A stretch of 64,000 bases of DNA, from the IMG/VR virus record IMGVR_UViG_3300009082_000959; one strand, given 5' to 3'. The DNA comes from a virus (lineage: Duplodnaviria > Caudoviricetes). A model generated the notes under the pieces. That model had not been told where the DNA came from, did no database searches, and saw only the letters and a program-made list of their open reading frames with translations. Each line of letters begins with the position of its first letter. Within the stretch, counting starts at the first letter, position 1. Shown here piece after piece: positions 11,885 to 62,903 of this stretch. The position numbers and the translations under genes are program-made.

Positions 11885-11897
11885 AAATCTATCAATA
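11885..11897 (+). promoter_or_regulatory. Intergenic motif AAATCTATCAATA, also present at 61680-61692
   Basis: Exact 13-nt match between two of the few intergenic gaps; both precede genes with an AGGAG RBS. Confidence 0.4.
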
Positions 11898-45594: not shown

Positions 45595-47712
45595 ATGACA
45601 GAAATTGTTGGTGGACACGGCGGCAGGTGGAGGGGCAGGTCTATAAGGCCAATCTTCAAAGATGGGTCGTCCTGCGCCTCTATGCCAAACAAAGATTCAA
45701 TGATTATGTCTCCATGCAATGTGGAGTGTGATTCTGTTTATCAAGTTTCAGTTTGCGCATCAAAAAATGGCGGCAACGGAATTTTGCTGGTGAATTTTTT
45801 TGGTGGGCAAAACTACGATGGTGCTCCAGCAACGGTCAATATAACAACACAAAACATATCTACCTATAAAGCCACAATTAGATCTCCAAAATTTCCAAAA
45901 GGATTACCAATAAGTTTGAGAATTTGGAAACCGTCCTCGTCCACTGGGAATGTATATGTTAAATTAATTAAAATTGATAAGGTTGTTGTCTCTGCGCAAA
46001 TTCAACAACAATCTAGGCCAATTATAAACACAATACCAAAAGTTCCACCTGCGTTGATTAAGAGAGAGGAACCAAAGAAAGTAAAAAGAGAAAGAAAAGA
46101 AATAATAGTTAGGCCAAAAAAGAAACAAGTTGCAATTGTTAAAGAAAAAAAGAAACCGTCTATTAATAAGTTTAGTGACTTGTTGTCTTTTGATACTAGT
46201 CTCGTTCCCTTGGTTTCTATTATTACACCAACTCGCGACGGTAGAAATTTAGTAGAAAGTTGCTACAAGGCAATAAAAGAAAACACCATCTATCCTAATT
46301 GGGAGTGGATAATTGGAGATAGTAATTCACAAGATGGAACGGCAGAATTAATCAAATCCTGGCAAGACCCCAGAATAAAATTAGTGGAAAGAAAAACCAC
46401 AGAAGGGTCATTTTCTTCGATAAACAATGAGTTGGTAAAGTATTCAACAGGTGAGTACTTACTGTTTTTGAACGATGACACGCAACCGCAATTTCTGTGG
46501 CTATACACTATGGTTTCAAAGCTTCATAATAGAGAAAACATAGGGGTGGTAGGTGCGCGTCTTTTATACTTAGAAAATAAAATACAGCACGCCGGCGTTG
46601 CGTTTATACCACATGGCCCCGTTAATGTTGGTAAGTCTGTACTTAAGTCTTTGCCGCAAGATTTCCCAAACAACGATAGGTTTTATCAAGCAGTTACGGG
46701 CGCTTGTATGTTGGTGAGAAAAACAGATTTTCTTGCTGTGGGCGGGTTTGATGAAGGATACTATTTTTGTTATGAAGACATAGACCTGTGTTTAAAAATT
46801 AATAAACAATTAAATAAAAAAATAGTTTATGCTTCGTCCGCAAAAGTATATCATAGGGAGAGTGCCACACAAAAGAAGTTTGGAACTGCTTGTGAAAAAC
46901 AAAGAAACGGAATCGCCTTGTTTCGCGCAAGGTGGTCATCATTTGTGAGGTCGGATTTAGTTGAGTTTAGCGGCAACCCAAACGCTGATATTAAGAAAAC
47001 AGACATATCGTTTGTTACTTGTGTTAGCAATTTAAATCAGTATAAATCACACGTACTGATGTCGTTGCTGAAAAACACAACAAAGAAAAACTATGAAGTT
47101 ATTCCAGTACTAAACGCCGGCAATAAATACTCAGCGGCCCAAGCATTAAATATTGGAATAAAATCTGCAAAAGGAAATATAATTGTTTTATGCCATCAGG
47201 ATGTGGTGTTTTTTGAGAAATGGATAGACAATTTATTTATTAGAATTGCAGAGGTTGAAGGAAAAACAAGCAAGTGGGGTGTTTTGGGAACCGCGGGAAT
47301 AAATTCTTCTGACACCACGATAGGAAGAGTGTATAATATAAAGGGTAAGCTGTCGTGGGCATCAACAACTGACAAAACCATAATGCCGGCCCAAACAGTT
47401 GATGAACATTGTATGGTGATTAAAAAGAACTCTGGGTTGCTGTTTGATGAAAAAACAGTTAAGGGGTTTCATTTTTACGGTGCGGATATTTGCTTGAACG
47501 CCAGTATAAATAAGGGCCTGGTGAACTATGGTATTTTGTGTCCAATAATTCATAATTCCGCTTCTGGTAGTTTAAATATTGGAAAAAAAGAGTTTGAGAG
47601 ACTTATGGTTGTGTTTGCAGAGAAATGGAAAAAAGTCCCAGTTATAAGGACACCAACGTCATTAATAAACAGAAAGTCTAAAAAGACATTTTTGAAGTTT
47701 AAGAAAAGGTAG
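45595..47712 (+). CDS. Multi-domain glycosyltransferase (N-terminal beta-domain plus two GT-A/GT2-like domains)
   Basis: LVSIITPTRD, FLNDDT, GFDEGYYFCYEDIDLC; second domain LCHQDV, VDEHC, FHFYGADIC. Confidence 0.88.
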   Translation: MTEIVGGHGGRWRGRSIRPIFKDGSSCASMPNKDSMIMSPCNVECDSVYQVSVCASKNGGNGILLVNFFGGQNYDGAPATVNITTQNISTYKATIRSPKFPKGLPISLRIWKPSSSTGNVYVKLIKIDKVVVSAQIQQQSRPIINTIPKVPPALIKREEPKKVKRERKEIIVRPKKKQVAIVKEKKKPSINKFSDLLSFDTSLVPLVSIITPTRDGRNLVESCYKAIKENTIYPNWEWIIGDSNSQDGTAELIKSWQDPRIKLVERKTTEGSFSSINNELVKYSTGEYLLFLNDDTQPQFLWLYTMVSKLHNRENIGVVGARLLYLENKIQHAGVAFIPHGPVNVGKSVLKSLPQDFPNNDRFYQAVTGACMLVRKTDFLAVGGFDEGYYFCYEDIDLCLKINKQLNKKIVYASSAKVYHRESATQKKFGTACEKQRNGIALFRARWSSFVRSDLVEFSGNPNADIKKTDISFVTCVSNLNQYKSHVLMSLLKNTTKKNYEVIPVLNAGNKYSAAQALNIGIKSAKGNIIVLCHQDVVFFEKWIDNLFIRIAEVEGKTSKWGVLGTAGINSSDTTIGRVYNIKGKLSWASTTDKTIMPAQTVDEHCMVIKKNSGLLFDEKTVKGFHFYGADICLNASINKGLVNYGILCPIIHNSASGSLNIGKKEFERLMVVFAEKWKKVPVIRTPTSLINRKSKKTFLKFKKR

Positions 47713-47717
47713 GTTAT

Positions 47718-48935
47718 ATGAAAGAAAGTTTAAATGTAAGATTAAATTCGTGGCTTTCTGGAAATTTAAGTTGGGCGTACGTAATGGGTAGGTTGGGTCA
47801 GGCTTTCGAGGAATTGGGGCATAATGTCTATACAATTTCCACCAACGGATTGAAAAATTCTGATCCATATTTTAATGAAGATAAAATGCTTAAGTCTGTC
47901 GCGGAACTTCAAAAATTTGGGCCGGGGAAACAAGCAATAAATATTGATCTTACCTATACGGTGCCACAAAATTTTCCAAAACGTTTTTTGCAAAATTCAA
48001 AAAACCGTTGTGCGATATACAACTACGAGACATGGAGCCCTGATGGTGGTTGGCCTAAAGACTGGGCAAAGTATTATGGACTAGTTGACTACTTTTTCCC
48101 AAGTTCTAGCTTCAGTGCTGAAGTGTTTGTTTTAAATAAAGTGCCGGCCCATAAAATTTTTGTTATACCGCACGGTGTCGATCAAAAAGTCTTCAATCCA
48201 TCTATACCAAAAATCAAATTAAACACTGATAAAAAGTATAAGTTTGTGTCAGTTACAGCACCACACTTTAGGAAAAATATTCCAGGGTTGCTGCACGCTT
48301 ACTGCCAAGCGTTTAGTGCTGCCGACGATGTTTGCTTGGTTCTCAAGACAAAGGCTTTCAAGCACTCCGATGGAATATACGACGCCCAGAAAAATCCTAA
48401 TGGTCGTAAGGGATTTGAAATAGTATTAGGAGACACATTTAAAGAAATTGCAAAGAAATATGGAAAAAATATTCCAAGCATAGAATTAGTTCAGGGACAT
48501 GTGGAGAATGTAGCGAGTGTCTACAATGCTGCTAGTTGTAATATTAGTTGTACTGGTAGTGAGGGGAACGGAATGATTTTTAGTGAAGCATTATCCTGTG
48601 GCCTTTTGAATATAGCACCCAGATACTCGGGGCAATTAGATCTGCTTAATGACGATAATTCTCTTCTAATTGATACCACCTTACGGCCCGCCAAAAATAC
48701 GGAACAGTACTGGAATTATAATCCAAAGAGTATGATTGGAGAGGTAAGTATTTCACACGCAGCAGAATTAATGCAAAAAGCACACAAAGAGCATGACACG
48801 CTATTAGAAAAGTTTAGACCAAATGTTGAGAAGGCAATTAAAGAATTATCCTGGACGAATCAAGTGCAAAAAATTATTAATGCTGTTTCTGGAAATGCAA
48901 AGCCATATGTGTCAGGAACTTATAAATTAAAATAA
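47718..48935 (+). CDS. Glycosyltransferase family 4 (GT-B)
   Basis: VIPHGVD, RKNIPGLLHAY and EGNGMIFSEALSCG (E-x7-E signature). Confidence 0.88.
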   Translation: MKESLNVRLNSWLSGNLSWAYVMGRLGQAFEELGHNVYTISTNGLKNSDPYFNEDKMLKSVAELQKFGPGKQAINIDLTYTVPQNFPKRFLQNSKNRCAIYNYETWSPDGGWPKDWAKYYGLVDYFFPSSSFSAEVFVLNKVPAHKIFVIPHGVDQKVFNPSIPKIKLNTDKKYKFVSVTAPHFRKNIPGLLHAYCQAFSAADDVCLVLKTKAFKHSDGIYDAQKNPNGRKGFEIVLGDTFKEIAKKYGKNIPSIELVQGHVENVASVYNAASCNISCTGSEGNGMIFSEALSCGLLNIAPRYSGQLDLLNDDNSLLIDTTLRPAKNTEQYWNYNPKSMIGEVSISHAAELMQKAHKEHDTLLEKFRPNVEKAIKELSWTNQVQKIINAVSGNAKPYVSGTYKLK

Positions 48936-50213
48936 ATGCGTAAAAAAATAACATTAGGGTATTGTTGCGATTTAGCAAAAAAGAAAAACGGCAAATGTTT
49001 GTCAACCGAATATGAACATTCTCATGCTAAAATGTTTTGGGAGTGTGAACAAGGGCATCGATGGCAAGCGAGTGTAAATACTATTCAACATGGGCATTGG
49101 TGTCTTGATTGCTCCGGGTTACGAAAAAAAGATCTCAAGTGGTGTTGTGAATTAGCCAGAGAAAAGGGAGGGAAGTGCTTATCTACAGGATATAAAAACA
49201 ATCGCGAAGCTATGCTATGGCAATGTTCAGAAGAACACCAATGGTGGGCGTGTGTGGGCTCTATTAAACAAGGAACCTGGTGTCCTTTCTGTGCGGGGAC
49301 AAATAAAAAAGACCTTCAATGGTGTTGTGATTTGGCAAAAAAGAAAAATGGTAAATGTTTGTCAACTGAATATAAAAACGCTTTAACTGACATGCTATGG
49401 GAGTGTGAGTATGGACACCAGTGGGAAGCAAAGGCAAATACTATTAATAACGGACACTGGTGTTCGCTGTGCGCCGGTAATAAAAAGAAAAATCTTGAAT
49501 GGTGTTGCTCGATGGCAAAAAAGAAAAACGGCAAGTGTTTGTCAACTGAATACGAACATTCTAATGCTAAAATGTTTTGGGAGTGCGCATTGGGACATCA
49601 GTGGTCAACAACGGCCCACATGATTCAAAGCGGACATTGGTGTTCTACTTGCGGATGGCAAAAGAAAAACCTTGGATGGTGTTGCGAATTAGCAGAAAAA
49701 AGAGGCGGGAAATGTTTGTCAACCGACTATAAAAATAATTGTACAAATATGTTGTGGCAGTGTTCAGAAGAACATCGGTGGAATGCGAGCGCAAGCAACA
49801 TTCAACGTGGGTCTTGGTGCCCAGAATGTAAAAATAAAACTCAAAGAAAATTAAAACAAATTATAATGGAAATTTTTAATCTGACGGAAAAACAGGTTGC
49901 GTTTAATTTTACTGGATTTGATTGGTTAAAAACGATTAAAAACAATAAACAAGAAATAGATATTTGGTTACCAGAGAAAAAACTTGCCATAGAATATGAT
50001 GGAGAACAACATTTTGGGCCAGTTAATTTTGGTGGCATCGGGGCAGAAAAAGCTCAAGCAAATTTTATTAAAACACAGTTTCTTGATATTATTAAAAATG
50101 AAAAAATCTCTGCTCATCCAGAGGATGTACAATATTTTGTAAGGTTTAGCTACAAAGAACCGATTACCATTGAACATGTTAGAGAAAAATTAATTAAAGA
50201 GGGAATCAAATGA
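48936..50213 (+). CDS. Zinc-ribbon repeat protein with C-terminal PD-(D/E)xK (Vsr/DUF559-like) nuclease
   Basis: Five repeats GKCLS..Y......W.C..GH.W......I..G.WC..C, then EIDIWLPEKKLAIEYDGEQH. Confidence 0.85.
   Translation: MRKKITLGYCCDLAKKKNGKCLSTEYEHSHAKMFWECEQGHRWQASVNTIQHGHWCLDCSGLRKKDLKWCCELAREKGGKCLSTGYKNNREAMLWQCSEEHQWWACVGSIKQGTWCPFCAGTNKKDLQWCCDLAKKKNGKCLSTEYKNALTDMLWECEYGHQWEAKANTINNGHWCSLCAGNKKKNLEWCCSMAKKKNGKCLSTEYEHSNAKMFWECALGHQWSTTAHMIQSGHWCSTCGWQKKNLGWCCELAEKRGGKCLSTDYKNNCTNMLWQCSEEHRWNASASNIQRGSWCPECKNKTQRKLKQIIMEIFNLTEKQVAFNFTGFDWLKTIKNNKQEIDIWLPEKKLAIEYDGEQHFGPVNFGGIGAEKAQANFIKTQFLDIIKNEKISAHPEDVQYFVRFSYKEPITIEHVREKLIKEGIK
48945..49829 (+). repeat. Five tandem zinc-ribbon coding repeats with 180-nt period
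   Basis: The CC codon pairs start at 48963, 49143, 49323, 49503 and 49680. Confidence 0.9.
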
Positions 50214-50890
50214 AAGTCTCAATTATCATTCCTGTTTACAATCAATTAAAATTAACAATAAAGTGTTTATCGGATGTCCTTAACACTTGCGATATTGATT
50301 TCGAAACAATAGTTGTAGATGATTGTTCAGCAAAAGAACCAATATCAAAAATACTACCAAAACTTTTCCCAAATATTAAACTTATAACCAACGCAACTAA
50401 CCTTGGATTTGCCAAAAGTATCAATGCTGGTATCGAGAATTCTGCTGGAGAGTTTTTGTGTTTTCTTAATAACGATACAGAGTTGCCTAACCCGCGATGG
50501 CTTAAAATTTTAGTCGACGCAATGCAGGACTATGATATCACCGGTCCTGCTGGTGGTCGTCTCAACAAGAATTACGACTATTTGCCAGGAGAAGCGAAAA
50601 AAAGAGGAGAGGACTTTCAATTTATCTCGTTTTGGTGTAGTATGCTAAAGCGAGAGGTGATAGAGAAAATAGGACCGCTGCCACTAAATTTTCAACTGGG
50701 ATATTGGGAGGATGTTTATTTTTGTCATATGGCCAAGGAGGCCGGTTTCAAAATGGGCATAACGGAAGGAACAGAGGTAAAACACTTGTATCACCAAACA
50801 TTTAAAGCAGAGGGTTTTAATCTACAAGAAGAATACAACAAAAACAGAAAAATATTTTTAGGACTAATTGGAAAGGAAAATAAAAAATGA
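50210..50890 (+). CDS. Glycosyltransferase family 2
   Basis: VSIIIPVYN, VVDDCS, NLGFAKSIN, FLNNDT, YWEDVYFC. Confidence 0.9.
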   Translation: MKVSIIIPVYNQLKLTIKCLSDVLNTCDIDFETIVVDDCSAKEPISKILPKLFPNIKLITNATNLGFAKSINAGIENSAGEFLCFLNNDTELPNPRWLKILVDAMQDYDITGPAGGRLNKNYDYLPGEAKKRGEDFQFISFWCSMLKREVIEKIGPLPLNFQLGYWEDVYFCHMAKEAGFKMGITEGTEVKHLYHQTFKAEGFNLQEEYNKNRKIFLGLIGKENKK

Positions 50891-51162
50891 GTAAGCCAAA
50901 GTTTAGTGTTCAGGAAAGTTGGGACAATAGCGGAGACGTAGATGTATGGTTTATCGAGGGCATATCTAATAATTTAGAAGAGAAGGTAGCAAGCCAATTG
51001 AACGAGGAGCTTGCCAGACTTCGGCCGCAAGAAAAAAGCGTATTTCATGTTGAGCGTGCAGTTGAAAAAATTATAGACGGAATGCACCGCGGCGGCAACT
51101 TAATAAAAAATAGGAAAAACAAGTGGGCCTGGGCTGAATCGGTTTACGCGGTTTGTAAATGA
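50887..51162 (+). CDS. Hypothetical protein
   Basis: 91 aa with ATGA overlaps at both ends. Confidence 0.65.
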   Translation: MSKPKFSVQESWDNSGDVDVWFIEGISNNLEEKVASQLNEELARLRPQEKSVFHVERAVEKIIDGMHRGGNLIKNRKNKWAWAESVYAVCK

Positions 51163-51509
51163 AAGTAAATCACGAAAAACAAATAGCGCGGCTGGTTGAT
51201 TTGGTTGGTAGGCTTGAGGCGCTAACAGAAAATAAGATAGAGCCTGAGGTCTTGCATTCGGCAAAAAGCTTTCTATTGAATTTACCCAAAACACACGAGA
51301 CGCCCAAAGTAGCGCCAGACGGAGAGGGCGGTATTATTTTTGCATGGGAAGTGGGGAAGACAGTCCGTATTTTGTCGGTGGATAGTCTTTGTTTGCATCT
51401 TGTAATTATTAATAAAGGACAATCAACCTCTTATCTAGAGGACATAGATTATGAAGAGGGTAAGATTCCAGAATTAATATTGGATAATCTTCCAAGAAAA
51501 GGCATATAA
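51159..51509 (+). CDS. Hypothetical protein
   Basis: 116 aa, translationally coupled; contains PKVAPDGEGGIIFAW. Confidence 0.65.
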   Translation: MKVNHEKQIARLVDLVGRLEALTENKIEPEVLHSAKSFLLNLPKTHETPKVAPDGEGGIIFAWEVGKTVRILSVDSLCLHLVIINKGQSTSYLEDIDYEEGKIPELILDNLPRKGI

Positions 51510-52331
51510 ATGCAGATTGATATTTGCACAACAACTTATCGCAATACCGCAAAACTTAAGACATTTCTTTCATCTGTGGTATCTAAAACCAAGTACGTAG
51601 ACTATAAGATTTTTGTTTTAGCAAATGATCCCAACGACGAAGTAAAAAAGGTAATAGAAGACTCCATGTATCTGGATGGCATTCTTTTTAATGACCGAAT
51701 AGAGCCAGTGTTCAATGACGACAACAGTGGTTCCTTTTCTTCAAACAATAATTTAATAGCGGCCGAAGGAAATGGAGACTACATTCTTTTTGCAAACGAC
51801 GACACTTACCCAATCAACGAAGATTGGCTACACCAGATGTCTCGAGTACTGGTTTCCGATCAGAAAGTTGGAGTAGTTGGCGCATTGTTGCTCTACCCCG
51901 GAGCTAAAATAATTCAACACTGTGGTGTTTTCTTCAGCCACCGCACAAATAATTTACCATATCACATGTTTTTTCGTAAGCCACTCAAAGAAGTGGCCGG
52001 TTTTGTTTACATGCCAAGATACTATCAAGCAGTTACTGGTGCTTGTATGCTGGTGAGGAGATCCGATTTTGAAAAAATCGGTGGGTTCTCAGAGGATTAT
52101 TGGTATTCTTTTGAAGATACCGATTTATGCATCAATATGAAAAGCAAGCTAAAGAAATCATGTGTGTTTACTCCTATGGCACAATTAATACACGCGGAGG
52201 GAATTTCTGGAACACAACCAAGGCTGACGGAGAACATAAATGCTTTTCGTAAAAATTGTGCTGGGAAATATTACAATGATTTGGAGTTTTATCAGAACGA
52301 TCCAAGATTTATGTTATACAAAACAAAATAA
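51510..52331 (+). CDS. Glycosyltransferase family 2
   Basis: FANDDT, VGALLLYP...IQHCG, AVTGACMLVRRSDFEKIGGFSEDYWYSFEDTDLC. Confidence 0.9.
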   Translation: MQIDICTTTYRNTAKLKTFLSSVVSKTKYVDYKIFVLANDPNDEVKKVIEDSMYLDGILFNDRIEPVFNDDNSGSFSSNNNLIAAEGNGDYILFANDDTYPINEDWLHQMSRVLVSDQKVGVVGALLLYPGAKIIQHCGVFFSHRTNNLPYHMFFRKPLKEVAGFVYMPRYYQAVTGACMLVRRSDFEKIGGFSEDYWYSFEDTDLCINMKSKLKKSCVFTPMAQLIHAEGISGTQPRLTENINAFRKNCAGKYYNDLEFYQNDPRFMLYKTK

Positions 52332-54277
52332 TGTTTCCAAAAAACTACAAGACTGAAAGCGCAACAATAGTAAATAAGAAAAAAGGTTCTGTAATATCTT
52401 TATCAAAACCACGTTCAAAAATTCTAATTCCGTTCGAAATAGATCTTAAAACTACCTATGAACTAATAATAGTCGCATCTAAAGTTAGTGGAAATGGTTG
52501 TTTATTTGTTTCAATAGAAGACAATAATCCAGTTGCAGTCTTGGTTGATGGAAACGAGGAAGACGAATACAGAGTTGTTCTTGGAAAATGTGGTGGTAAG
52601 TTTTTTAAGATTAGCAGAGAAACCAGAGGAACCGGGTGTCTGTATGTAAAATCCGTTGTAATATTATCTACTAATAAGGAGATAGACACAAAATCAATTG
52701 TGTTTGGATCAAGGAAACTAATGAAAACTAGGCAGAAAAAAACATACTATAATGTTGGTGGTGTAATTTGTAGCGGCAAAGATTTTCCCTTGGTTTCTAT
52801 TATTACACCAACTAGAGATGGCCACGATTTAATAGAAAGTTGCTACAAAGCAATAAAAGAAAACACTATTTATCCGAACTGGGAATGGATAATTGGTGAT
52901 AGTAATTCTCAAGATGGAACTTCTGAACTGATTAAGTCTTGGCAAGACTCCAGAATAAAATTAGTGGAAAGAAAAACAACAGAGGGATCATTTTCTTCGA
53001 TAAATAATGAGTTGGCTTCAAAGGCACTAGGGGAATATCTGCTATTTTTGAACGATGACACACAACCGCAGTCGTTTTGGTTGTGTAGTATGATGTCTCA
53101 AATTAGGACCGCGGATGTCGGTGTGGTCGGAGCACAATTATTATACCCGAACGGACAAGTACAACACGCTGGAGTTGCATTTACCGCACAGGGACCAGTT
53201 AATATTGGTAAAGCTGTACTGGGTTCGTTTCAAGAAAATTTCAGCAACACAAATCACGAGCTACAAGCAATTACCGGCGCTTGTATGTTAGTAAGAAAAA
53301 CAGACTTTCTCGAAGTAGGTGGGTTTGATGAAGGATATTATTTTTGTTATGAAGACGTGGATCTTTGTTTAAAAATTAATAAACAATTAAATAAAAAAAT
53401 AGTTTATGCTTCGGCCGCAAAAGTAATTCATGCAGAAAGCGTTTCTCAAAAAAAGTATCCGACATCTGGAACAAAACAAAAAGATGGCATAGCTTTATTT
53501 AAAAGTAGGTGGCTGAACAAAGTTGATTTGGATTTTCTAAAACTAATGAAAGAAAAAAACTTTGACCGCCTAGATGTGTCATTTGTTGTGTGTGTTAGTA
53601 ATAAAGAACAATTAGCAACGCATGTGGTTGGCTCTTTGCTACACAGTAAAACTAAAAAGAAAATCGAGATTGTGCCCATTTTTAATGAGGGGAATAGATA
53701 TAGTGCAGCACAAGCATTAAACCTCGGCACTGATACTGCAAAATCTAATTTGATTGTTTTATGCCACCAGGATGTAGCATTTTTCGAAGACTGGATAGAC
53801 AATTTATTTGAAAGAATTTCAGAAATAGAAACTGAAACAAATAAGTGGGGCGTTCTGGGAACTGCTGGGATAACCAGAAAAGATGATACGATTGGAGTTG
53901 TCTATAGCGGTAGTGGTTCTATTCAATGGGGCTCTACCGTAAGGGCCAAAAAATTAAGAGTTCAGACTGTAGATGAGCATTGTATGGTGATTAAAAAGAA
54001 CTCTGGATTGCGGTTTGATGAGAAAAATTTTGACGGATTTCACTTGTATGGTCCAGACATATGTTTGGAGGCAGAGAGTCGCGGATTTCAGAATTTTGGA
54101 ATACTTTGTCCATTGATTCATAATTCTGCGTCAGCAAGCACAAATACCGGCAAATCAGAATTTATGAGGGTCCTAAAAGTGCTGGCAGACAAGTGGGGTA
54201 GTAAATACCCGAAAATTAGAACACCAACATCAGTGATAGACAACGGAAAATTACAAACATATATAAATTTTAAATAG
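52331..54277 (+). CDS. Multi-domain glycosyltransferase, paralog of 45595-47712
   Basis: Same three-part architecture; the first 76 aa of the GT2 domain are 71/76 identical to the paralog. Confidence 0.88.
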   Translation: MFPKNYKTESATIVNKKKGSVISLSKPRSKILIPFEIDLKTTYELIIVASKVSGNGCLFVSIEDNNPVAVLVDGNEEDEYRVVLGKCGGKFFKISRETRGTGCLYVKSVVILSTNKEIDTKSIVFGSRKLMKTRQKKTYYNVGGVICSGKDFPLVSIITPTRDGHDLIESCYKAIKENTIYPNWEWIIGDSNSQDGTSELIKSWQDSRIKLVERKTTEGSFSSINNELASKALGEYLLFLNDDTQPQSFWLCSMMSQIRTADVGVVGAQLLYPNGQVQHAGVAFTAQGPVNIGKAVLGSFQENFSNTNHELQAITGACMLVRKTDFLEVGGFDEGYYFCYEDVDLCLKINKQLNKKIVYASAAKVIHAESVSQKKYPTSGTKQKDGIALFKSRWLNKVDLDFLKLMKEKNFDRLDVSFVVCVSNKEQLATHVVGSLLHSKTKKKIEIVPIFNEGNRYSAAQALNLGTDTAKSNLIVLCHQDVAFFEDWIDNLFERISEIETETNKWGVLGTAGITRKDDTIGVVYSGSGSIQWGSTVRAKKLRVQTVDEHCMVIKKNSGLRFDEKNFDGFHLYGPDICLEAESRGFQNFGILCPLIHNSASASTNTGKSEFMRVLKVLADKWGSKYPKIRTPTSVIDNGKLQTYINFK

Positions 54278-54285
54278 GTGGTAAC

Positions 54286-55290: not shown

Positions 55291-55296
55291 AATATA

Positions 55297-56046: not shown

Positions 56047-56074
56047 TTGTTATGTTGGTGACAAAAGCTTATAA

Positions 56075-56317
56075 ATGTATTATGCGGAGCAAACCATGAA
56101 AGTAGATATAACAGAAATGATTTTTAGCGCCTTAAAAGAATTTGGAATAGACTGCGACCGTAATAAAGAAGCAGTTCAAAATTTGCTACTGCATTTTAAG
56201 TTTGTAGATTTCAGCGGGTTTTTGGGTTGCACTGCCGATAATAGATTGCTTGCGGCTATTAATAATGCGGTGCGTGCAGAAGTTCGTCATAGCATAGAAT
56301 TAGGAAATTTTATATGA
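56075..56317 (+). CDS. Hypothetical protein (start may be 56096)
   Basis: 80 aa; GGAG precedes the ATG at 56096; ATGA overlap with the next gene. Confidence 0.6.
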   Translation: MYYAEQTMKVDITEMIFSALKEFGIDCDRNKEAVQNLLLHFKFVDFSGFLGCTADNRLLAAINNAVRAEVRHSIELGNFI

Positions 56318-57081
56318 AAAAAATAGTTCTGGTGAGTTTAGTGCACAACAGGAAAAACTTGGTTGGTTTAGCAATAGATTCTGCTTTGAATCAAACGCTA
56401 GATAAATCAAAGTGGATTCATTTATTGATTGACAATAATTCCACGGACGGAGCAGATAAAGTATGTGAAGCCTATGCCGCAAAATACCCACATATTCGTT
56501 TTGTGAAAATGGATAGTAATGTTGGCCAGCAGAAAGCATATAATTGGATATTAGATACATGGTTGCCGCAGAACGAACCAGCGGCAGAGATTCTTTCCGT
56601 ATTAGACAGTGATGACTTGTTGGTTAATATTGCCCTGGAAGAAGTAGAAAAAATGTTCGACGCTCACCCAGAAATAGGAATGACTTATTCTGGGTTTAGC
56701 ATTATAGACGACAATGGCAAATACAAGGTAAAGGATCACCCAAAAGCCAGATATGTTCCAAATCAATTCACTCCTGCGGGCCAAATGATTTTAAGAAAGA
56801 TATTTATTACGCAAAACCCAATAGGACACCAGCGTTCTTTTAGGATTTCTTGTTTAAGGGCTGTGGGCGGATTCAATACAAACTACCAGTATGCCACAGA
56901 CTATAATGCTGCTGGACGAATTTTAGAGAAATTTCCAGTAGTAAAGATAAACAAAGTTTTATATTTGTGGAGACAACACAAAAATCAAATAGAGAGACAA
57001 TGCTCGGCCCAACAAACACTGGATTGGAAGAACATGCAAAAAGAGTTTAGCGAGAGATGGAAAAAGCTAAAACTGATATAG
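56314..57081 (+). CDS. Glycosyltransferase family 2
   Basis: IDNNSTDG, VLDSDD, VGGFNTNYQYATDY, VLYLWRQH. Confidence 0.9.
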   Translation: MKKIVLVSLVHNRKNLVGLAIDSALNQTLDKSKWIHLLIDNNSTDGADKVCEAYAAKYPHIRFVKMDSNVGQQKAYNWILDTWLPQNEPAAEILSVLDSDDLLVNIALEEVEKMFDAHPEIGMTYSGFSIIDDNGKYKVKDHPKARYVPNQFTPAGQMILRKIFITQNPIGHQRSFRISCLRAVGGFNTNYQYATDYNAAGRILEKFPVVKINKVLYLWRQHKNQIERQCSAQQTLDWKNMQKEFSERWKKLKLI

Positions 57082-57088
57082 GAGTCAT

Positions 57089-57562
57089 ATGTTAAAAAAT
57101 TATCTTACAAAAGAAGAGTTCGAGTTGGAGTGGAATGTTAAGCTAATAAGTAAGAAACAATCGCTATGGATGAGGCTGACTGGTTGGTTTATTACGATTT
57201 TCAGCCCATACTTTATGATTGGAATGTTTACTACTTATAGGCTCCCGTTTCAGAAATACGGAACCATAGCACATCCTGACGGCCTAAATCCACTTAAATT
57301 TCCTGATGTGCTGGAACACGAACTTATGCATGTAGAACAGCAACGCACTGCTTGGGGCTTGTTTAAATCGGCGTTACTGTATTCCTTGCTACCGCTTCCC
57401 GTGTTTTTCTCTGGGCGATGGTTTGTGGAAAGAGAACCCTATTTAATGGACATCAGGAAAGGATTATTTACGCCAGAGCAAGCAGCGGACATACTCTGGG
57501 ACCATTATGCTTGGTGCTGGCCTAAATCTTTGATGATTAAGTGGTTTAAAGAGCATAAATAA
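57089..57562 (+). CDS. Putative zinc metallopeptidase (HExxH)
   Basis: VLEHELMHVEQQR motif, a downstream ERE, and two hydrophobic stretches. Confidence 0.55.
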   Translation: MLKNYLTKEEFELEWNVKLISKKQSLWMRLTGWFITIFSPYFMIGMFTTYRLPFQKYGTIAHPDGLNPLKFPDVLEHELMHVEQQRTAWGLFKSALLYSLLPLPVFFSGRWFVEREPYLMDIRKGLFTPEQAADILWDHYAWCWPKSLMIKWFKEHK

Positions 57563-57741
57563 TGGACCAAGAAAAGGCACTGATTTATGTATCTTATCTT
57601 GGAAAAACCAAGCCAAAGAGGTTGGGAGCAATACTGAAATTAATCCACACAACAGGAACAGGTTTTTTTGAGAAATATAGCACACCAACTGATACAATAC
57701 TATGTTTTATAAATAAATTGGTGGAGAAAAATCTTTTATGA
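57562..57741 (+). CDS. Small hypothetical protein, 59 aa, missing from the ORF track
   Basis: MDQEKALIYVSYLGKTKPKRLGAILKLIHTTGTGFFEKYSTPTDTILCFINKLVEKNLL; TAATG overlap upstream and ATGA overlap downstream. Confidence 0.65.
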   Translation: MDQEKALIYVSYLGKTKPKRLGAILKLIHTTGTGFFEKYSTPTDTILCFINKLVEKNLL

Positions 57742-58100
57742 CTATATGGGAACGAGAGAAACAGGCTTTCAGTGCTCTTAAAATACTGGGAAAGGAATTA
57801 GAGCAAGTTAGGGAATTACTAGAAGATGCTGACATAAACAATATAGATTCATTATGTACCGTTGCGGAAGAAATACTATTAGAATACGCTATGGCTCTTG
57901 AAGAATATCAGGTCACCGCGGCGGCTGGAAATTATACAAACGCTCTCGATCATTATTTGCTACGAACGCAAAGGTCGGAGATGTTGAAAATAATAAAGTG
58001 CGCAGCCAGCGGAAAATACAGCAAAAGCGAAATTATGGAAATGTCGATAAAATATTTGGAAGATATTAATGAAATGGTTAAAGTTTCGGAAGGAAATTAA
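57738..58100 (+). CDS. Hypothetical helical protein
   Basis: 120 aa, acidic and coiled-coil-like, coupled on both sides. Confidence 0.6.
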   Translation: MTIWEREKQAFSALKILGKELEQVRELLEDADINNIDSLCTVAEEILLEYAMALEEYQVTAAAGNYTNALDHYLLRTQRSEMLKIIKCAASGKYSKSEIMEMSIKYLEDINEMVKVSEGN

Positions 58101-59089
58101 TGGCAGTTATTTGGTTTAATACGGCACCAGCTCTTTCTGGTGGTCCGAGTGTATGGGTTTATAAGACGGCAAATGAATTAAGGAGGCGTGGTCACAAGGT
58201 AATTTTTGATGACCCCAAGAAATCCGATGTGGCGGTTTGTGTAATAAGTGTTGGGAAAACGATAAGGAAAATTGATAGGTCTAAAACTAAAATCATATTG
58301 CGGGTAGACGGTGTGTTTAACGCCGAATATAATAAATTATTTAATAGACCAGTAAGACCTGATATGGTTGCTCTACATAAAGATCTTGAAATAAATATTC
58401 CGCGAGTTGATTTTGTCGTATTTCAGAGCTACTTTTCTAAGGAAAGAATAAACGAAGAAATAGTCACTAGGCAGGATAATAATTGGGCAGTAATTAATAA
58501 TGGCGTAGATGTAAATTTATTTAAACCCGCACCAAAGAATGATAAAACAATAACCTTATTTCATATAGGCAATATAAGAAACGGCTATATAATGGAAAGC
58601 CTTATTGGAGTATATTCTGAATTGCTTAAAAGAGGCCACAAAATTAAACTTACGATAGCCGGCGGAATGGATGCAGAGTGCTCAAAGATATACAATCAGC
58701 ACAAGGGTGATAAAAACATATCATATTTGGGTTCAGTTCCTAACACGGCGGCAGCGAAATTATTTTCACTTGGAGACATATATCTGGGTCCGCGAATGGG
58801 AAGCTCAAACGATAATGTAATTTCAGAAGCACTTGCGTGTGGATTACCAGTGATTGTTCCGCAATGGTCTGGAAATGCTGAGTTGATAACTGACGGCTCA
58901 GAGGGTATAATTGTTGATAGCGGCGGCCACTGGAACTACGGACCAGACTACGATAGTAAATTAGCAGACGGGGTTGAGAGGATACTACCAAACCTGGATG
59001 ACTTTAAGACTAGGGCACGAAAGCACGCAGTAGCTAATTTAACCGTGTGGGCCATGACAGATAAATACTTGAAAGCGATGGGCCTATGA
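58100..59089 (+). CDS. Glycosyltransferase family 4 (GT-B)
   Basis: GGPSVW...LRRRGH, VINNGVD, SNDNVISEALACGLPVI. Confidence 0.88.
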   Translation: MAVIWFNTAPALSGGPSVWVYKTANELRRRGHKVIFDDPKKSDVAVCVISVGKTIRKIDRSKTKIILRVDGVFNAEYNKLFNRPVRPDMVALHKDLEINIPRVDFVVFQSYFSKERINEEIVTRQDNNWAVINNGVDVNLFKPAPKNDKTITLFHIGNIRNGYIMESLIGVYSELLKRGHKIKLTIAGGMDAECSKIYNQHKGDKNISYLGSVPNTAAAKLFSLGDIYLGPRMGSSNDNVISEALACGLPVIVPQWSGNAELITDGSEGIIVDSGGHWNYGPDYDSKLADGVERILPNLDDFKTRARKHAVANLTVWAMTDKYLKAMGL

Positions 59090-59400
59090 AAGTAGTTCAT
59101 TGTAAAAGAGAAAAATACGATGTTTATATTGGTCGACCGTCTGAGTGGGGCAATCCTTATTCACACAAAGATGGAACCATAGCACAATTTAAGGTTGCGA
59201 CTAGAGAAGAAGCTATTGAGAAATACGAAGAATATTTGCGTAGTAACAGCCACTTAATGGGGAAAATAGAATGCTTGCGAGGAAAAATACTTGGGTGTTG
59301 GTGTGCTGGAAAAGAACCGCTAACGCAAAATGATACACCATTTAAGTGCCATGGACAAATTATTTTAAAAATTTTGGCAGAGAAAGAAAGCACACTATGA
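59086..59400 (+). CDS. DUF4326-like protein
   Basis: VVHCK...DVYIGRPSEWGNPY...LRGKILGCWCA...CHG is the characteristic DUF4326 pattern. Confidence 0.85.
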   Translation: MKVVHCKREKYDVYIGRPSEWGNPYSHKDGTIAQFKVATREEAIEKYEEYLRSNSHLMGKIECLRGKILGCWCAGKEPLTQNDTPFKCHGQIILKILAEKESTL

Positions 59401-60140
59401 CAGATTTAACGGTTTTGACGGTAGTTGAGAATGATAAGGGTCTATTAGACCTTATGATTAGTTCTATATATAAATTCACCAACCCAACGCCCAAAATAAT
59501 AATTTGTGATAATGGAAACAACGGAAGGGTTTTAAGCAAATACGCTAATGATAAAAACATTCAAATTATAAGATTTAAACCAACCCTTGCGTCTGGTTCT
59601 GTTAGGCATGGTGAATCATTAAATAAAATTTTCCCCTTAGTTACAACGAAAAAAACAGCAATAGTCGAATCGGATTGCATACTGCTGCGGTCTGGGTGGG
59701 ATAATTTAGATACGACAGTACACCAAATGTCCGCGGCAAAAAAGGCAATCGTTAATGGTCTTAATCTATATCATATATGTTTTTTGGTATTTGAAACAGA
59801 GCCGCTGGCACTAGGCGGGTTTGATTTTAGACCAGGCACAAATGGGAACCGAAAGAATAGGTCATTTTCGGTAGAAGAGGATGTGGGTTGGAGGTTGGCT
59901 AATAAAATAGACCACAGACTTATCAAAGAGATAGAATTCATTGATTGTAAAACCGGCAAGGGAAAGTTTTTTGATAAAACATTTCAGTCAGATGAATTTT
60001 GGGTTGATGGTATTCCAACCGTAGCACATTTTGGTCGCGGTTCAAATTTAGCAGGCAAGGCAATTAGAAATGGCTTCGCCCACCCAACCAAACAACTTGA
60101 GGACTGGAAGAAAATCGCGGAGACAATACTAAATGCTTGA
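59397..60140 (+). CDS. GT2-like (GT-A) glycosyltransferase
   Basis: LTVLTVVEN, ICDNGN, VESDCIL, EEDVGW; start placed at 59397 (ATGA overlap) rather than 59346. Confidence 0.65.
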   Translation: MTDLTVLTVVENDKGLLDLMISSIYKFTNPTPKIIICDNGNNGRVLSKYANDKNIQIIRFKPTLASGSVRHGESLNKIFPLVTTKKTAIVESDCILLRSGWDNLDTTVHQMSAAKKAIVNGLNLYHICFLVFETEPLALGGFDFRPGTNGNRKNRSFSVEEDVGWRLANKIDHRLIKEIEFIDCKTGKGKFFDKTFQSDEFWVDGIPTVAHFGRGSNLAGKAIRNGFAHPTKQLEDWKKIAETILNA

Positions 60141-60570
60141 AATTAAAGAAATTTTAGAAAAAATAGCAGAAAACAAAAAGCGTAGTTCTAAAGAATACTA
60201 CCATCCACTGCCAAAACAAGAATCAATATTAATTAGAAAATATTTTGCCGACCACATACTGATTCCGATAAGTGGCGACCCAGTAATGGAAATATTTAAT
60301 AAGGAAAACACACTTATTTCCAAGGGTTACGAGAGAATAGTAATAGGTGACTATGGCCCATTTTTGGAATTTACCGCGCAACAAGCTGTATTGGCCAACT
60401 TGGTTAATCATTTTCCAGGTGCCCCAAGAAGAAAAGTTAAATATATTTGGATGGAAACCAAAGACAAAACAAGAACAAAGGTATATTTTCAGCAAGGAAG
60501 AGTTAGTTACGCCGACTACAAAATTGGCAGATACTATGTCGATTCATTTGAGGTTTTGTATAAAGAATAA
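60133..60570 (+). CDS. Hypothetical protein
   Basis: 145 aa, coupled on both sides; contains RIVIGDYGPFLEF. Confidence 0.6.
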   Translation: MLEIKEILEKIAENKKRSSKEYYHPLPKQESILIRKYFADHILIPISGDPVMEIFNKENTLISKGYERIVIGDYGPFLEFTAQQAVLANLVNHFPGAPRRKVKYIWMETKDKTRTKVYFQQGRVSYADYKIGRYYVDSFEVLYKE

Positions 60571-61655
60571 TGATAGGTATAATTGTAAGAGGTCTGACAT
60601 TTTTAAAGGTCCTTGCTCCCATAATGCTTGAATTAAAAGCATTGGGTAAGGACTATATTATATTTTATCACGACGCTTCTCACGGAGCAAAAGAATACGA
60701 TAGACCTACACTGGTCAGACTACAAGAGGCTCATGCTGCGTCAGCCAAGCAAGCAAAAAAACTAGTTCCGTTCTCAAATGATGGTAAATTGGTTTCATTA
60801 CTGGTCGCAAACAAGGTTAAAAAAATCGTGAGTCTGGAAGTATGGATTTGTTCAAGAAAACACATTAAAGGGTTTAAGAAACACAACATAAAAATATGCA
60901 GTGTTTCTTATCTCACCGATTCTATTTGGCAACCAGAACAATCCGTAACCTCAGTAGATAGGGTTTATTATTCAAGCGAATACCTTATGCGCATACACCA
61001 TGATTTCGCAAAAATTAAGTTTTTGCCAACAAGAGATAGGTGCCTAGGTAGCCCACTGTTTGATAGTTTATATACCGAGCAAGATAAAAAAACGAATGAT
61101 GTGCTGGTTCTTTTGCCCAACTTAAAATCAGAACACGTAAAGTCTGCTTTTGGTAAACAGGACAATTTTTTTAAAATCATAGAAAAAATTCATAGCAGCG
61201 GTAGGCCATTGATTTTTAAAACGCGGAAAAAGCAATGGATGCCATCAGAAATATCCAAATATTCAAAGAAAATAGTGTATGATGGAAAAACAATGTATCC
61301 GTCGGCAATGTCAGATTTGCTAAAAACATGCTCGACAACCATACTTTTTTATTCAAGTGGAATATTCGAGTCAGTATATGGTCAAAATCATACTATAAAT
61401 ATACCTTTGCCACTAAAAAGGTGGAGTTGGGATATTACAAAACTAAAACAATATTTCTCAAAAGAACAAGATTCTCTATACAATTTTAGTGGTTGTGTCG
61501 AGAATGCAGAGCAATCAGATATACTCTCTGGAAAATTTATTCTACCCAGCACGCCAATAGACCAATCAAGAAGAGACCTGTGGATTCAAAAATTCATAGG
61601 TTCTTGCCACAACGGCAGCGCCAAAAGAATAGCAACAGACATAGCCAGTCTATAA
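60570..61655 (+). CDS. Putative GT-B-fold transferase (glycerophosphotransferase/capsule-synthesis-like)
   Basis: FLKVLAPIMLEL N-terminus, LIFKTRKK, ILFYSSGIFE and position next to the PseB-like gene; family uncertain. Confidence 0.4.
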   Translation: MIGIIVRGLTFLKVLAPIMLELKALGKDYIIFYHDASHGAKEYDRPTLVRLQEAHAASAKQAKKLVPFSNDGKLVSLLVANKVKKIVSLEVWICSRKHIKGFKKHNIKICSVSYLTDSIWQPEQSVTSVDRVYYSSEYLMRIHHDFAKIKFLPTRDRCLGSPLFDSLYTEQDKKTNDVLVLLPNLKSEHVKSAFGKQDNFFKIIEKIHSSGRPLIFKTRKKQWMPSEISKYSKKIVYDGKTMYPSAMSDLLKTCSTTILFYSSGIFESVYGQNHTINIPLPLKRWSWDITKLKQYFSKEQDSLYNFSGCVENAEQSDILSGKFILPSTPIDQSRRDLWIQKFIGSCHNGSAKRIATDIASL

Positions 61656-61675
61656 ACCATAAAAACAATTTTTCC

Positions 61676-61708
61676 ATACAAATCTATCAATAATCTATAG
61701 ATTTGTAT
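61676..61708. promoter_or_regulatory. Perfect 12-bp inverted repeat ATACAAATCTAT-N9-ATAGATTTGTAT; operator-like
   Basis: Arms at 61676-61687 and 61697-61708; nested palindrome AATCTATAGATT at 61692-61703; 28 nt upstream of an HTH-bearing gene. Confidence 0.6.
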
Positions 61709-61736
61709 AGGATTTTTTTGTTTATTAGGAGATTAT

Positions 61737-62903
61737 ATGTCCGATTATACCATAGGTGAGATGTCTAAAAAACTAGGCAAATCAATAAAAACCCTAAGAG
61801 AATGGGATAAGAAAGGTATTCTCGTGGCAAAGAGAGGCCCGACCAATCGAAGAACCTATACGCATGAGCAATTTTTAGAAATATCTGGTAAAGAAAAATA
61901 CATTTGTTCTGGAACTGATTTGGATGCAGTAAAGGATAAAGTTGTCTTAATTACCGGAGGAACAGGATCACTCGGCCAAGCACTGACCAGGAAAATATGC
62001 TCAGTTGCCAAAAAAGTAATAATATTTAGTAGGTGCGAACTTAAGCAAGCAAACATGCAGCAAAAGTTCGCAGACCAAACAAATATTCGGTATATGCTTG
62101 GTGATGTTAAAGATAAAAGCAGGTTGCTATTTGCGTTGTCCGGCGTTGATATTTGTATCCATGCGAGTGCGTATAAGAGAATTGACAGTTGTTACTACTC
62201 ACCATTTGAGGCGGTTAAAAATAATGTTATTGGTTCTATGAATGTTGCAGAAGCAACGATTGAGGTTAAAACACCAAGGGTAATATTAGTATCAACTGAT
62301 AAGGCAACAGAAAGCGTTACGCTTTATGGAGGATCAAAATTTGTGTCAGAGCAAATGTTTATTGGTGCAAACAACTACTCGCGTAGGGATGGTACAATAT
62401 TATCCGCAGTAAGATATGGAAATGTATATGGAAGTAATGGTAGCGTAAGACATATTTTTAAGAAACAGGCAGAGGAATGTGGAGAAATAAGTATTACACA
62501 CAAAGATATGACTAGGTTTTTTATGTCATTAAACGATGCCTGTGATTTGGTTTTATTTTGTGCCAATAATATGATCGGTGGAGAAATTTTTATACCAAAA
62601 ATGAAATCAATAGAGATAGCAAAATATGCATCGATGGTTTTTCCAAATATTCCACAAAAAATAATAGGTCTACGTGCTTACGAAAAAATACACGAGAAAT
62701 TAATATCAGAAACAGAATCTAGCTGTGTTATAAAGTGTAATGAAAAATATTATAAAATAGTTCCACCAAATGTAAATATTCCGGGAGTTGGGTGGGATAG
62801 TAATTATCCAGTAGGGAAAAAAGAAAAACCTTTTATTATGTCTTCAGAAACAGCAGAGAGACTTTCTGAAGAAGAGATAGAAAAACTAGATAGTGATTTT
62901 TAA
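61737..62903 (+). CDS. pseB: UDP-N-acetylglucosamine 4,6-dehydratase (PseB/FlaA1-like) fused to N-terminal MerR/IS607-type HTH
   Basis: ITGGTGSLG, FSR.ELKQ, STDKA, YGGSK, VRYGNV.GS.GSV, MTRF, GGEIFIPK; aa 1-50 are YTIGEMSKKLGKSIKTLREWDKKGILVAKRGPTNRRTY. Confidence 0.8.
   Translation: MSDYTIGEMSKKLGKSIKTLREWDKKGILVAKRGPTNRRTYTHEQFLEISGKEKYICSGTDLDAVKDKVVLITGGTGSLGQALTRKICSVAKKVIIFSRCELKQANMQQKFADQTNIRYMLGDVKDKSRLLFALSGVDICIHASAYKRIDSCYYSPFEAVKNNVIGSMNVAEATIEVKTPRVILVSTDKATESVTLYGGSKFVSEQMFIGANNYSRRDGTILSAVRYGNVYGSNGSVRHIFKKQAEECGEISITHKDMTRFFMSLNDACDLVLFCANNMIGGEIFIPKMKSIEIAKYASMVFPNIPQKIIGLRAYEKIHEKLISETESSCVIKCNEKYYKIVPPNVNIPGVGWDSNYPVGKKEKPFIMSSETAERLSEEEIEKLDSDF

Follow-up and report, generated by a model that had tools for sequence, protein, structure and literature searches.

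What does a tailed phage make with eleven glycosyltransferases of its own, and onto which surface does it put the product? The question is raised by a 64,000-nucleotide (nt) stretch of viral DNA, IMG/VR record IMGVR_UViG_3300009082_000959 (Duplodnaviria; Caudoviricetes), the whole of which is called the window below. An earlier reading of the sequence (the original prediction) had marked a glycosylation island at positions 45595-62903, directly behind the tail genes. Based on the analysis described here, we put the probability at about one in two that the phage enzymes build, in the cytoplasm, a nonulosonate-containing glycan on the virion fibres. Specifically, we favour glycosylation of the virion because the enzymes are soluble, export families were not found in relatives, the island lies behind the fibre genes, a Maf-fold gene is present, and a sequence motif is shared with the sheath gene. 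The main chemical clue, absent from the original prediction, is that the island is joined to a nonulosonic-acid pathway of the pseudaminic type.

A transferase island behind the fibre genes

Two large structural genes precede the island. The first encodes a 2180-amino-acid (aa) fibre-type protein with a Laminin_G_3 domain (36105-42647, + strand; Pfam E 1.5e-13), lies 3' of the Baseplate_J gene, and is a candidate glycan acceptor. The second, the last structural gene before the island, encodes a 942-aa distal tail or fibre protein (42759-45587, + strand) that was assigned from position alone and had no match in the PDB or in deposited phage records. The 942-aa gene stops at 45587 and, 7 nt later, the island starts at 45595. 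Its genes are all on the + strand, and 12 of the 21 junctions overlap by 1-8 nt. Where fibre gene and island adjoin, a consensus scan revealed no G+C-rich terminator. None of 50,697 phage records was matched in a megablast search with the island.

Between 45595 and 62903, we identified 11 proteins with glycosyltransferase folds: eight GT-A, two GT4-like GT-B and one uncertain GT-B. Seven scored above the Pfam GT2 cut-off. These include two tandem GT-A enzymes of 705 aa (45595-47712; GT2 E 1.3e-25) and 648 aa (52331-54277; 3.2e-24), each with a second domain, Glyco_tranf_2_5 (5.2e-15 and 2.2e-16, respectively). The other five GT2 transferases have 226 aa (50210-50890; 7.7e-25), 273 aa (51510-52331; 4.8e-10), 334 and 249 aa (a paralogous pair at 54286-56046, the second from 55297; 1.6e-16 and 5.2e-21; 40% mutual identity), and 255 aa (56314-57081; 3.2e-16). 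The eighth GT-A protein, of 247 aa (59397-60140), had no Pfam match; its Atlas model gave template-modelling (TM) scores of 0.75-0.80 against GT2 clusters and a feature score of 0.98. Its start was taken from the Atlas record and a gene call on the Logan contig L010, which is described below.

The GT-B proteins were assigned by several routes. The 405-aa GT4-like transferase at 47718-48935 matched Pfam Glycos_transf_1 below the cut-off (1.4e-5), and a profile of this protein and its orthologues matched GT4-type GT-B chains in the PDB, namely sucrose-phosphate-synthase-like, BshA and GlgA chains (E 4e-5). The 329-aa GT4 transferase at 58100-59089 matched Glyco_trans_1_4 (1.5e-14) and Glycos_transf_1 (5.9e-14). 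The uncertain protein, encoded at 60570-61655, is a GT-B-fold enzyme resembling TagF, Capsule_synth and Epimerase_2. Its Atlas model (predicted TM score 0.83) gave TM scores of 0.68-0.78 to the Glyphos_transf (TagF), Epimerase_2 and LpxB clusters, and Pfam gave no match. PDB sequence searches with this protein and with the open reading frame (ORF) 59346 yielded nothing useful. In two relatives, L016 and L018, a 352-aa gene that is comparable to 60570 in its position has a weak Capsule_synth match. On its modelled fold, the 60570 protein is a candidate ulosonic-acid or polyol-phosphate transferase.

This inventory, obtained from Pfam, an orthologue profile and Atlas models, reproduces the tally of the original prediction (11 genes, comprising eight GT2/GT-A, two GT4 and one uncertain GT-B). 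The two proteins said there to have double transferase domains are those encoded at 45595 and 52331, and the ORF layout agrees with the description of an island co-oriented with the last tail gene and starting 7 nt behind it. The transferases had also been described as having no obvious transmembrane anchor. Indeed, in a Kyte-Doolittle scan of the island proteins, no 19-residue window reached 1.6 except at the very start of the 60570 protein (1.93).

Further families were sought in four contigs of related viruses, one of which has 206 kb; all are fragments (CheckV 6-25%), and control genomes were positive. None of the four encoded an initiating transferase of the Bac_transf (PF02397) or WecA (PF00953) family, a Wzx flippase (PF01943), a Wzy_C polymerase/ligase (PF04932) or an ABC2_membrane exporter (PF01061). 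The earlier statement that no flippase or Wzy was recognised can thus be extended to these contigs. The result bears on the alternative that the phage remodels the surface of its host. Under this explanation, the phage enzymes would have as substrates the lipid-linked intermediates of the host or its surface proteins, for example flagellin or the S-layer, and would alter O-antigen, capsule, teichoic acid or glycoprotein via the initiating transferase and exporter of the host, either to block superinfection or to keep progeny from sticking to debris. We regard this as possible but doubtful. The missing initiating, flipping, polymerising and exporting functions argue against it, as does the location of the island at the end of the fibre module, with no junction terminator detected and the position conserved in relatives.

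The conservation was evaluated in three IMG/VR relatives, L001-L003, with proteins 50-65% identical; these are three of the four contigs. In all three, the island lies 3' of an orthologue of the 942-aa gene (63-65% identical), and L001 and L003 also carry the 2180-aa orthologue upstream. The distance from the 942-aa orthologue to the first recognised island gene was 55 nt in L003, 746 nt in L002 and 1013 nt in L001. The order of the genes is the same, the GT-B orthologue of 47718 coming first and the GT2 genes following. Orthologues of the 51510 protein are 57-66% identical in L001-L003, and those of the 56314 protein are 52-70% identical in L002-L004. Copy numbers vary: the 54286/55297 family is represented by three stretches in L002 and one in L003, the number of GT4 genes differs among L001-L003, and the relatives hold one tandem GT-A copy, the extra 705-aa copy being missing. 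A conserved place combined with a variable transferase repertoire is what is expected of a surface glycan under diversifying pressure.

The two tandem GT-A proteins are paralogues (52% identical). The 705-aa protein consists of a beta-sandwich N-domain, a Lys-rich linker and the tandem GT-A domains, and its sequence matched the Escherichia coli K4 chondroitin polymerase K4CP (2z86, 1.5e-8, in the first GT-A domain) and 2qgi (1e-9) in the PDB. In the AlphaFold2 model of the 648-aa protein (predicted local distance difference test, pLDDT, 87), residues 1-115 are all-beta and residues 119-140 are disordered, and two GT-A domains follow. Both GT-A domains are conserved. Using this model, Foldseek placed K4CP at the top (E 5.6e-19), then PmHS2 (heparosan synthase 2 of Pasteurella), COLGALT1, human LARGE1 and GlfT2. 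The overall TM scores of these matches were only 0.25-0.3 (0.28-0.31 for K4CP, with a root-mean-square deviation of ~19 Å); thus, the packing of the domains appears to differ from that of K4CP-type polymerases. The N-domain gave TM scores of 0.50-0.56 against CBM_4_9/CBM6 beta-sandwiches, which is a lead only. In an exhaustive search, homologues of the first GT-A domain were often located in proteins of 1000-4000 aa that matched in three to five stretches. The tandem enzyme of some relatives occupies a frame of 854-858 aa (L003 10001-12577; G002:C1 ~52353-53567). The L003 frame contains a second N-domain-like stretch, 31% identical to residues 1-145, and the beta-sandwich module may be duplicated there.

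Based on these models, a chain-extending role of the tandem enzymes is plausible. Their resemblance to the capsule polymerases K4CP and PmHS2 would suit remodelling of the host surface. It would also suit a free or loosely attached polysaccharide or glycoconjugate that serves in the infected cell as a matrix, decoy or metabolic sink and sits on neither virion nor envelope: with an N-domain resembling carbohydrate-binding modules, polymerase-like enzymes could lengthen a chain that has no protein acceptor, and no acceptor-specific initiating enzyme was identified. We consider such a free product quite unlikely, as no exporter was found in the related contigs and the conserved linkage to fibre genes would be unexplained.

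A pseudaminic-type pathway and a Maf-fold enzyme

The gene at 61737-62903 (+ strand) encodes a MerR-type helix-turn-helix (HTH) domain (Pfam MerR 8e-10) fused to a PseB-like uridine diphosphate N-acetylglucosamine 4,6-dehydratase (Polysacc_synt_2 3.7e-80). Its best family was TIGR03589, at 312 bits under an equivalog cut-off of 407.75, and the FnlA and CapE types scored lower. The best PDB match was FlaA1/PseB of Helicobacter pylori (2gn4, E 7e-71). The original prediction had likewise called the protein PseB-like. The in-frame MerR-PseB fusion is kept in relatives from different samples (L004 9992-11182, L013 1873-3021, L018 69-1253).

A DNA-binding-type HTH on a sugar enzyme could also point to hypermodification of DNA, in which the transferases would put sugars on modified phage bases and so evade restriction. 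Phage transferases that glycosylate DNA are well known (T-even phages; Pyle 2024, as cited in PMC12619734), and the island encodes a DUF4326 protein (104 aa, 59086-59400, + strand; Pfam 6.9e-21), a domain for which a link between ADP-ribose chemistry and the modification of DNA has been predicted (PMC7824862). This is the weakest of the alternatives, and we consider it highly improbable. No hydroxymethylase of the thymidylate synthase family (Thymidylat_synt, PF00303) was found in the four related contigs, including the 206-kb one. Similarly, 11 transferases and a nonulosonate pathway go far beyond any known DNA-sugar system, the GT2, GT4 and Maf-like families are those of glycan and protein glycosylation, and the genes are located in the tail module, not in a replication module.

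The pathway continues past the window. L010 has the same sequence as the window across 10,617 nt and runs 1,453 nt beyond it. In this added part, from the same phage, we found a CTP_transf_3 gene (251 aa), resembling synthetases of cytidine monophosphate (CMP)-nonulosonates, and a GNAT gene (182 aa), after which an aldo-keto-reductase-like gene, read by eye, begins. The first two would correspond to PseF and PseH of the pseudaminic acid pathway. The original prediction had placed the end of the island at 62903, which does not hold in view of the CTP_transf_3 and GNAT genes further on.

Much more of the pathway was seen in relatives. There, MerR-PseB is followed by a DegT-type aminotransferase (PseC), a short-chain dehydrogenase/reductase, up to three NeuB-family synthases and CMP-sugar synthetases (PseF). 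The clusters also hold GNAT, class-III aminotransferase, formyltransferase, GlmS, hexapeptide acyltransferase, polysaccharide pyruvyl transferase and methyltransferase genes, genes for TagF/Capsule_synth-like GT-B enzymes, and a weak Epimerase_2-like gene read as PseG/NeuC. The PseC, NeuB and PseG-type genes occur in L004, L013, L016 and L018. We had considered PseG as the identity of the 60570 protein, and set it aside because the Epimerase_2-like gene of the relatives is a separate one adjoining NeuB. Since the relatives hold a near-full gene set of this type, the clade is predicted to make one or more nonulosonates of the pseudaminic-acid type, probably bearing unusual N-acyl groups. Nonulosonates are typical of lipopolysaccharide, capsule and flagellin, which would fit a host-surface target as well.

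A second conserved module is found in L013 and in L015 (IMGVR_UViG_3300033148_007408, 87511-102655). It comprises genes for a 60570-like GT-B enzyme, a ~370-aa protein and a Maf-like enzyme, then a small ORF and the genes for a CMP-sugar synthetase, a pyruvyl transferase and NeuB. Two Maf-like genes are present in L015, and L004 and L015, two loci of one contig, together contain at least three genes resembling NeuB. This gene content points to more than a single ulosonic acid and to a ~50-kb glyco-region in relatives. A search with NeuB of L004 matched 3 of the 50,697 phage records deposited, and no cultured phage was among the three; thus, the nonulosonate pathway is little known in phages. 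Among the papers listed by a literature search, none named pseudaminic acid in connection with jumbo, huge or mega phages or with giant viruses, and a 2022 review of giant-virus glycans does not name pseudaminic, legionaminic or any other nonulosonic acid (PMC9614988).

A possible transferase for such a sugar is encoded among the virion genes, which argues against remodelling of the host surface. At 3-644 (+ strand), with its 5' end cut by the window, lies a gene for a Maf/MptE-like, sialyltransferase-fold enzyme, to which we were led by a weak MptE-like match of a 251-aa L013 protein. The window homologue is 36% identical (E 1e-41) to L013:16264-17019. With Pfam MptE-like (PF01973), the 3-644 protein gave an E value of 0.0097, and the scores in the family, 20.5 and 16.1 bits, were under the cut-off of 34.6. 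An AlphaFold2 model of the family, based on a 23-homologue alignment, had a pLDDT of 92.8. Using Foldseek, its best PDB match was Maf of Magnetospirillum (5mu5, E 4.9e-7, TMq 0.59), followed by CstII, GT29 sialyltransferases including mammalian ones, and ST8Sia; among the matches to Swiss-Prot models was WaaZ, a transferase of Kdo (3-deoxy-D-manno-octulosonate). In BFVD, similar folds are common among proteins of uncultured tailed phages. The phage family members have 250-266 aa, compared with 632 residues in the Maf chain, and are without the N- and C-terminal flagellin-binding domains of Maf. Because these flanking domains are missing, we refer to a Maf/sialyltransferase-fold enzyme and not to Maf. 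As modelled, it is a candidate CMP-nonulosonate transferase.

Regulation, acceptor and purpose

The upstream part of the window is a contractile-tail module. It includes a sheath gene (phrog_2839/279, E ~3e-19), whose best phage matches are sheaths of the Myrna group, and a Baseplate_J/wedge protein (E 2.7e-41). The sheath gene and PseB have an upstream sequence in common. The 13-mer AAATCTATCAATA lies 5' of the sheath gene (11885-11897) and again at 61680-61692, in the 81-nt gap before PseB. In L004, AAATCTATCAATA or a close variant lies 5' of PseB at 9880-9892 and 9899-9911, and the exact 13-mer recurs in this locus; in L013, a 2-mismatch form is found upstream of PseB at 1832-1844. The site has persisted 5' of PseB in relatives though the surrounding intergenic DNA has diverged. 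From its recurrence at the sheath and PseB genes, here and in relatives, it is therefore a conserved cis element. Judged by its placement, it is perhaps a phage promoter or operator, with a late promoter in view. When one mismatch was allowed, the 11-mer was not enriched in the window, and the weight rests on the exact 13-mer and its conservation. Scans of the window for sigma-70 promoters and G+C-rich terminators gave results at chance level. A motif common to the island and the sheath gene is a further point against a host-surface role.

In the window, the left arm of a hairpin contains the PseB copy of the 13-mer. The hairpin (61677-61719, + strand) is A+T-rich, with a 15-bp stem and a 9-nt loop followed by a U-run (-19.9 kcal/mol, z = -5.06), and it may be an intrinsic terminator of the transferase block and/or an operator for HTH-PseB. 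The earlier remark that no obvious terminator separates tail genes and island stands for that junction in our consensus scan, yet this hairpin lies further on, before PseB. A near-perfect palindrome is located directly 5' of MerR-PseB in the window; none was found upstream of MerR-PseB in L004 or L013.

The distribution of the motif DGY would be compatible with a role as an acceptor mark. Seven large peripheral proteins together contain 15 copies of DGY, where about 1.8 are expected, and the island enzymes contain none. The 2180-aa fibre-type protein has 5 (0.64 expected) and the 942-aa protein 2 (0.12 expected).

Gene identities and folds, enzyme solubility, operon-like packing, fibre synteny and the lack of export machinery in the sequence searched are directly supported. 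From them we infer an acceptor, an expression timing, a role for each transferase and a biological purpose, as follows. The island would be one half, that of glycan assembly, of a larger glyco-module of the phage, and its expression would probably be late. Soluble phage enzymes would make the activated sugars, with the PseB-like dehydratase starting a pseudaminic-acid-type pathway that the CMP-sugar synthetase-like enzyme and the GNAT just past the window would also serve. Some 11 cytoplasmic transferases would then assemble a complex glycan directly on virion proteins that face outward, the most probable acceptors being the large tail fibres encoded directly upstream. Extension of a repeating chain may fall to the two tandem GT-A enzymes, and the Maf/sialyltransferase-fold enzyme, the TagF-like GT-B enzyme or both may add the nonulosonate. 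A glycan coat of this kind would shield or tune the fibres, in protection, in adhesion or in avoiding non-productive binding. Cytoplasmic, stepwise building of a glycan on virion proteins had been proposed in the original prediction. That proposal gains from the soluble enzymes, the lack of carrier and export genes in relatives, the fibre synteny and the Maf-fold gene; remodelling of the host surface keeps a lesser place beside it.

Several points weigh against virion glycosylation. It is predicted from the genes, and PseC, NeuB and PseG were seen in relatives only, this phage having been read just 1,453 nt past the window. The related contigs being fragments, absences from them are not proof. 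Transferases of O-antigen, capsule and teichoic acid are also soluble or peripheral, normally having no membrane helices; the solubility of the island enzymes is thus no counter-argument to a host-surface role, and missing membrane parts are compatible with conversion of the host surface. The phage could feed the lipid-carrier and export machinery of its host. The TagF-like, Capsule_synth-like and pyruvyl-transferase genes carried by relatives are typical of cell-envelope polymers. Every long ORF of the window is on the + strand, at an even G+C content of 0.34-0.44; since the whole 64 kb is co-oriented, adjacency is weaker evidence of co-regulation. The hairpin and U-run stand between the transferase block and PseB. 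Known virion glycosylation by phages involves 2-4 transferases, compared with 11 here. Finally, the published reading of transferase and sugar clusters in jumbo cyanophages is modification of the host surface (PMC7824862 section 3.4.10; PMC12801897).

Not all genes of the island belong to glycosylation. The range 45595-62903 stands as a set of glycosylation genes for the transferases and PseB; it does not for the ORF at 48936-50213 (+ strand; DUF4379 2e-12, phrog_559 HNH endonuclease 2.9e-52), nor for the 365-aa ORF at 62903-64000 (+ strand; DUF4379 4.6e-13, phrog_559 2.7e-44), whose end at window position 64000 is shown by L010. Both are homing endonucleases. They are free-standing paralogues, 41% identical, inserted among the island genes, with a DUF4379 zinc finger and an HNH-type phrog_559 match; a reading of the DUF4379 proteins as sugar enzymes was rejected on the phrog_559 matches. 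Homing endonucleases are missing at these sites in relatives (the 48936 site was checked in L001-L003), whose sugar clusters contain copies in other places (L004 16441-17559 and 18516-19658). The L004 cluster also holds thymidine kinase and HNH endonuclease genes (7482-8027, 8143-8694); therefore, the island tolerates unrelated insertions.

Family searches gave no match for the small ORFs of the island, all on the + strand: 91 and 116 aa at 50887-51509, 80 aa at 56075-56317, 157, 59 and 120 aa at 57089-58100 (where the L010 gene calls agree), and 145 aa at 60133-60570. The 91-aa ORF is kept in L001 and L002. The DUF4326 gene lies between a GT4 and a GT-A gene; the domain is predicted to be rhodanese-phosphatase-like and to act on ADP-ribose-derived phosphates (PMC9503650). 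Outside the island, a trypsin-like serine protease gene (1673-2377; Trypsin_2, E 2e-13) sits where the large structural genes begin, two genes 3' of the Maf-like gene with one ORF between. Its product may be a virion maturation protease.

If the glycan is on the virion, glycosylation of phage particles is not confined to the few-enzyme systems of actinobacteriophages, and its complexity could match that of giant viruses, including a sialic-acid-like sugar that bacteria put on flagella and capsules. It would bear on how huge phages protect or aim their fibres, on phage immunogenicity, and on the prediction of host range from fibre sequences alone. A more far-reaching picture, which we offer tentatively and think rather improbable as a whole, is that of a huge-phage clade whose fibres are coated in the cytoplasm, without a lipid carrier, with a complex and possibly polymeric pseudaminic-type glycan. 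This would be the first virus-made nonulosonate coat and a counterpart of the Mimivirus fibrils, with DGY as a possible acceptor. If the host surface is remodelled instead, the island is a large example of a strategy already proposed. For glyco-engineering, too, the island offers soluble transferases in compact form, among them the tandem GT-A enzymes and their beta-sandwich N-domain.

Comparison with known glycosylation systems

The pathway resembles that of bacterial flagellin pseudaminylation (PseBCHGIF and Maf; Campylobacter, Helicobacter, Magnetospirillum), which likewise starts with PseB and leads to a CMP-nonulosonate. In the flagellin system, a Maf-fold transferase glycosylates the protein of the filament in the cytoplasm, and no lipid carrier takes part. 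Unlike flagellin Maf, the phage enzyme has ~250 aa and resembles CstII and WaaZ, which act on glycans, just as closely, and no flagellin is involved. For the tandem enzymes, the best fold matches of the 648-aa protein include K4CP, PmHS2 and LARGE1, which also have two GT-A domains per chain. The phage enzymes differ from the K4CP type in their extra beta-sandwich N-domain and, as modelled, in packing, and their polymerase activity is only predicted.

That some phages and giant viruses glycosylate their particles with their own transferases, as the original prediction stated, is documented. According to the accounts in which Freeman et al. 2023 is cited (PMC12363180, PMC12619734), the virions of three mycobacteriophages, Che8, Corndog and Myrna, carry sugars added by transferases of the phages, and the virion glycans of chloroviruses and Mimivirus are built by soluble viral transferases (PMC9614988). 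The mycobacteriophages resemble the present case in being tailed and in encoding soluble GT2-type transferases, which in these accounts modify the phages' own structural proteins in the cytoplasm. As described there, few transferases put simple sugars on the C-terminal tails of capsid and tail-tube subunits. In contrast, the present system has 11 transferases, tandem-domain enzymes and a nonulosonate pathway, follows fibre genes, and is predicted from its gene content.

The giant viruses share with the window clade-specific clusters that combine rare bacterial-type sugar pathways with many soluble, often multi-domain transferases (PMC9614988, PMC10117803). Their polysaccharide is on the outer virion fibrils, and some have pyruvyl transferase and Kdo/CMP-sugar genes (PMC9614988, PMC10117803). 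They are eukaryote-infecting Nucleocytoviricota, whereas the present case is a tailed bacteriophage.

Jumbo cyanophages, which are large myophages, also carry clusters of many transferases: P-SSM2 has a 15-gene cluster and S-SCSM2R has 13 transferases, the function being unproven (PMC7824862, PMC12801897). Like the island, these clusters are large and polymorphic and hold paralogous transferases, NAD-dependent epimerase/dehydratases and nucleotidyltransferases. They are read as modifying the host surface and are not reported directly after fibre genes; Kdo genes are reported for them, but not a Pse-type pathway or a Maf-like enzyme. What differs here is the combination: one tailed phage brings together 11 transferases, a pseudaminic-type pathway and a Maf-fold enzyme, and links them to its fibre genes.

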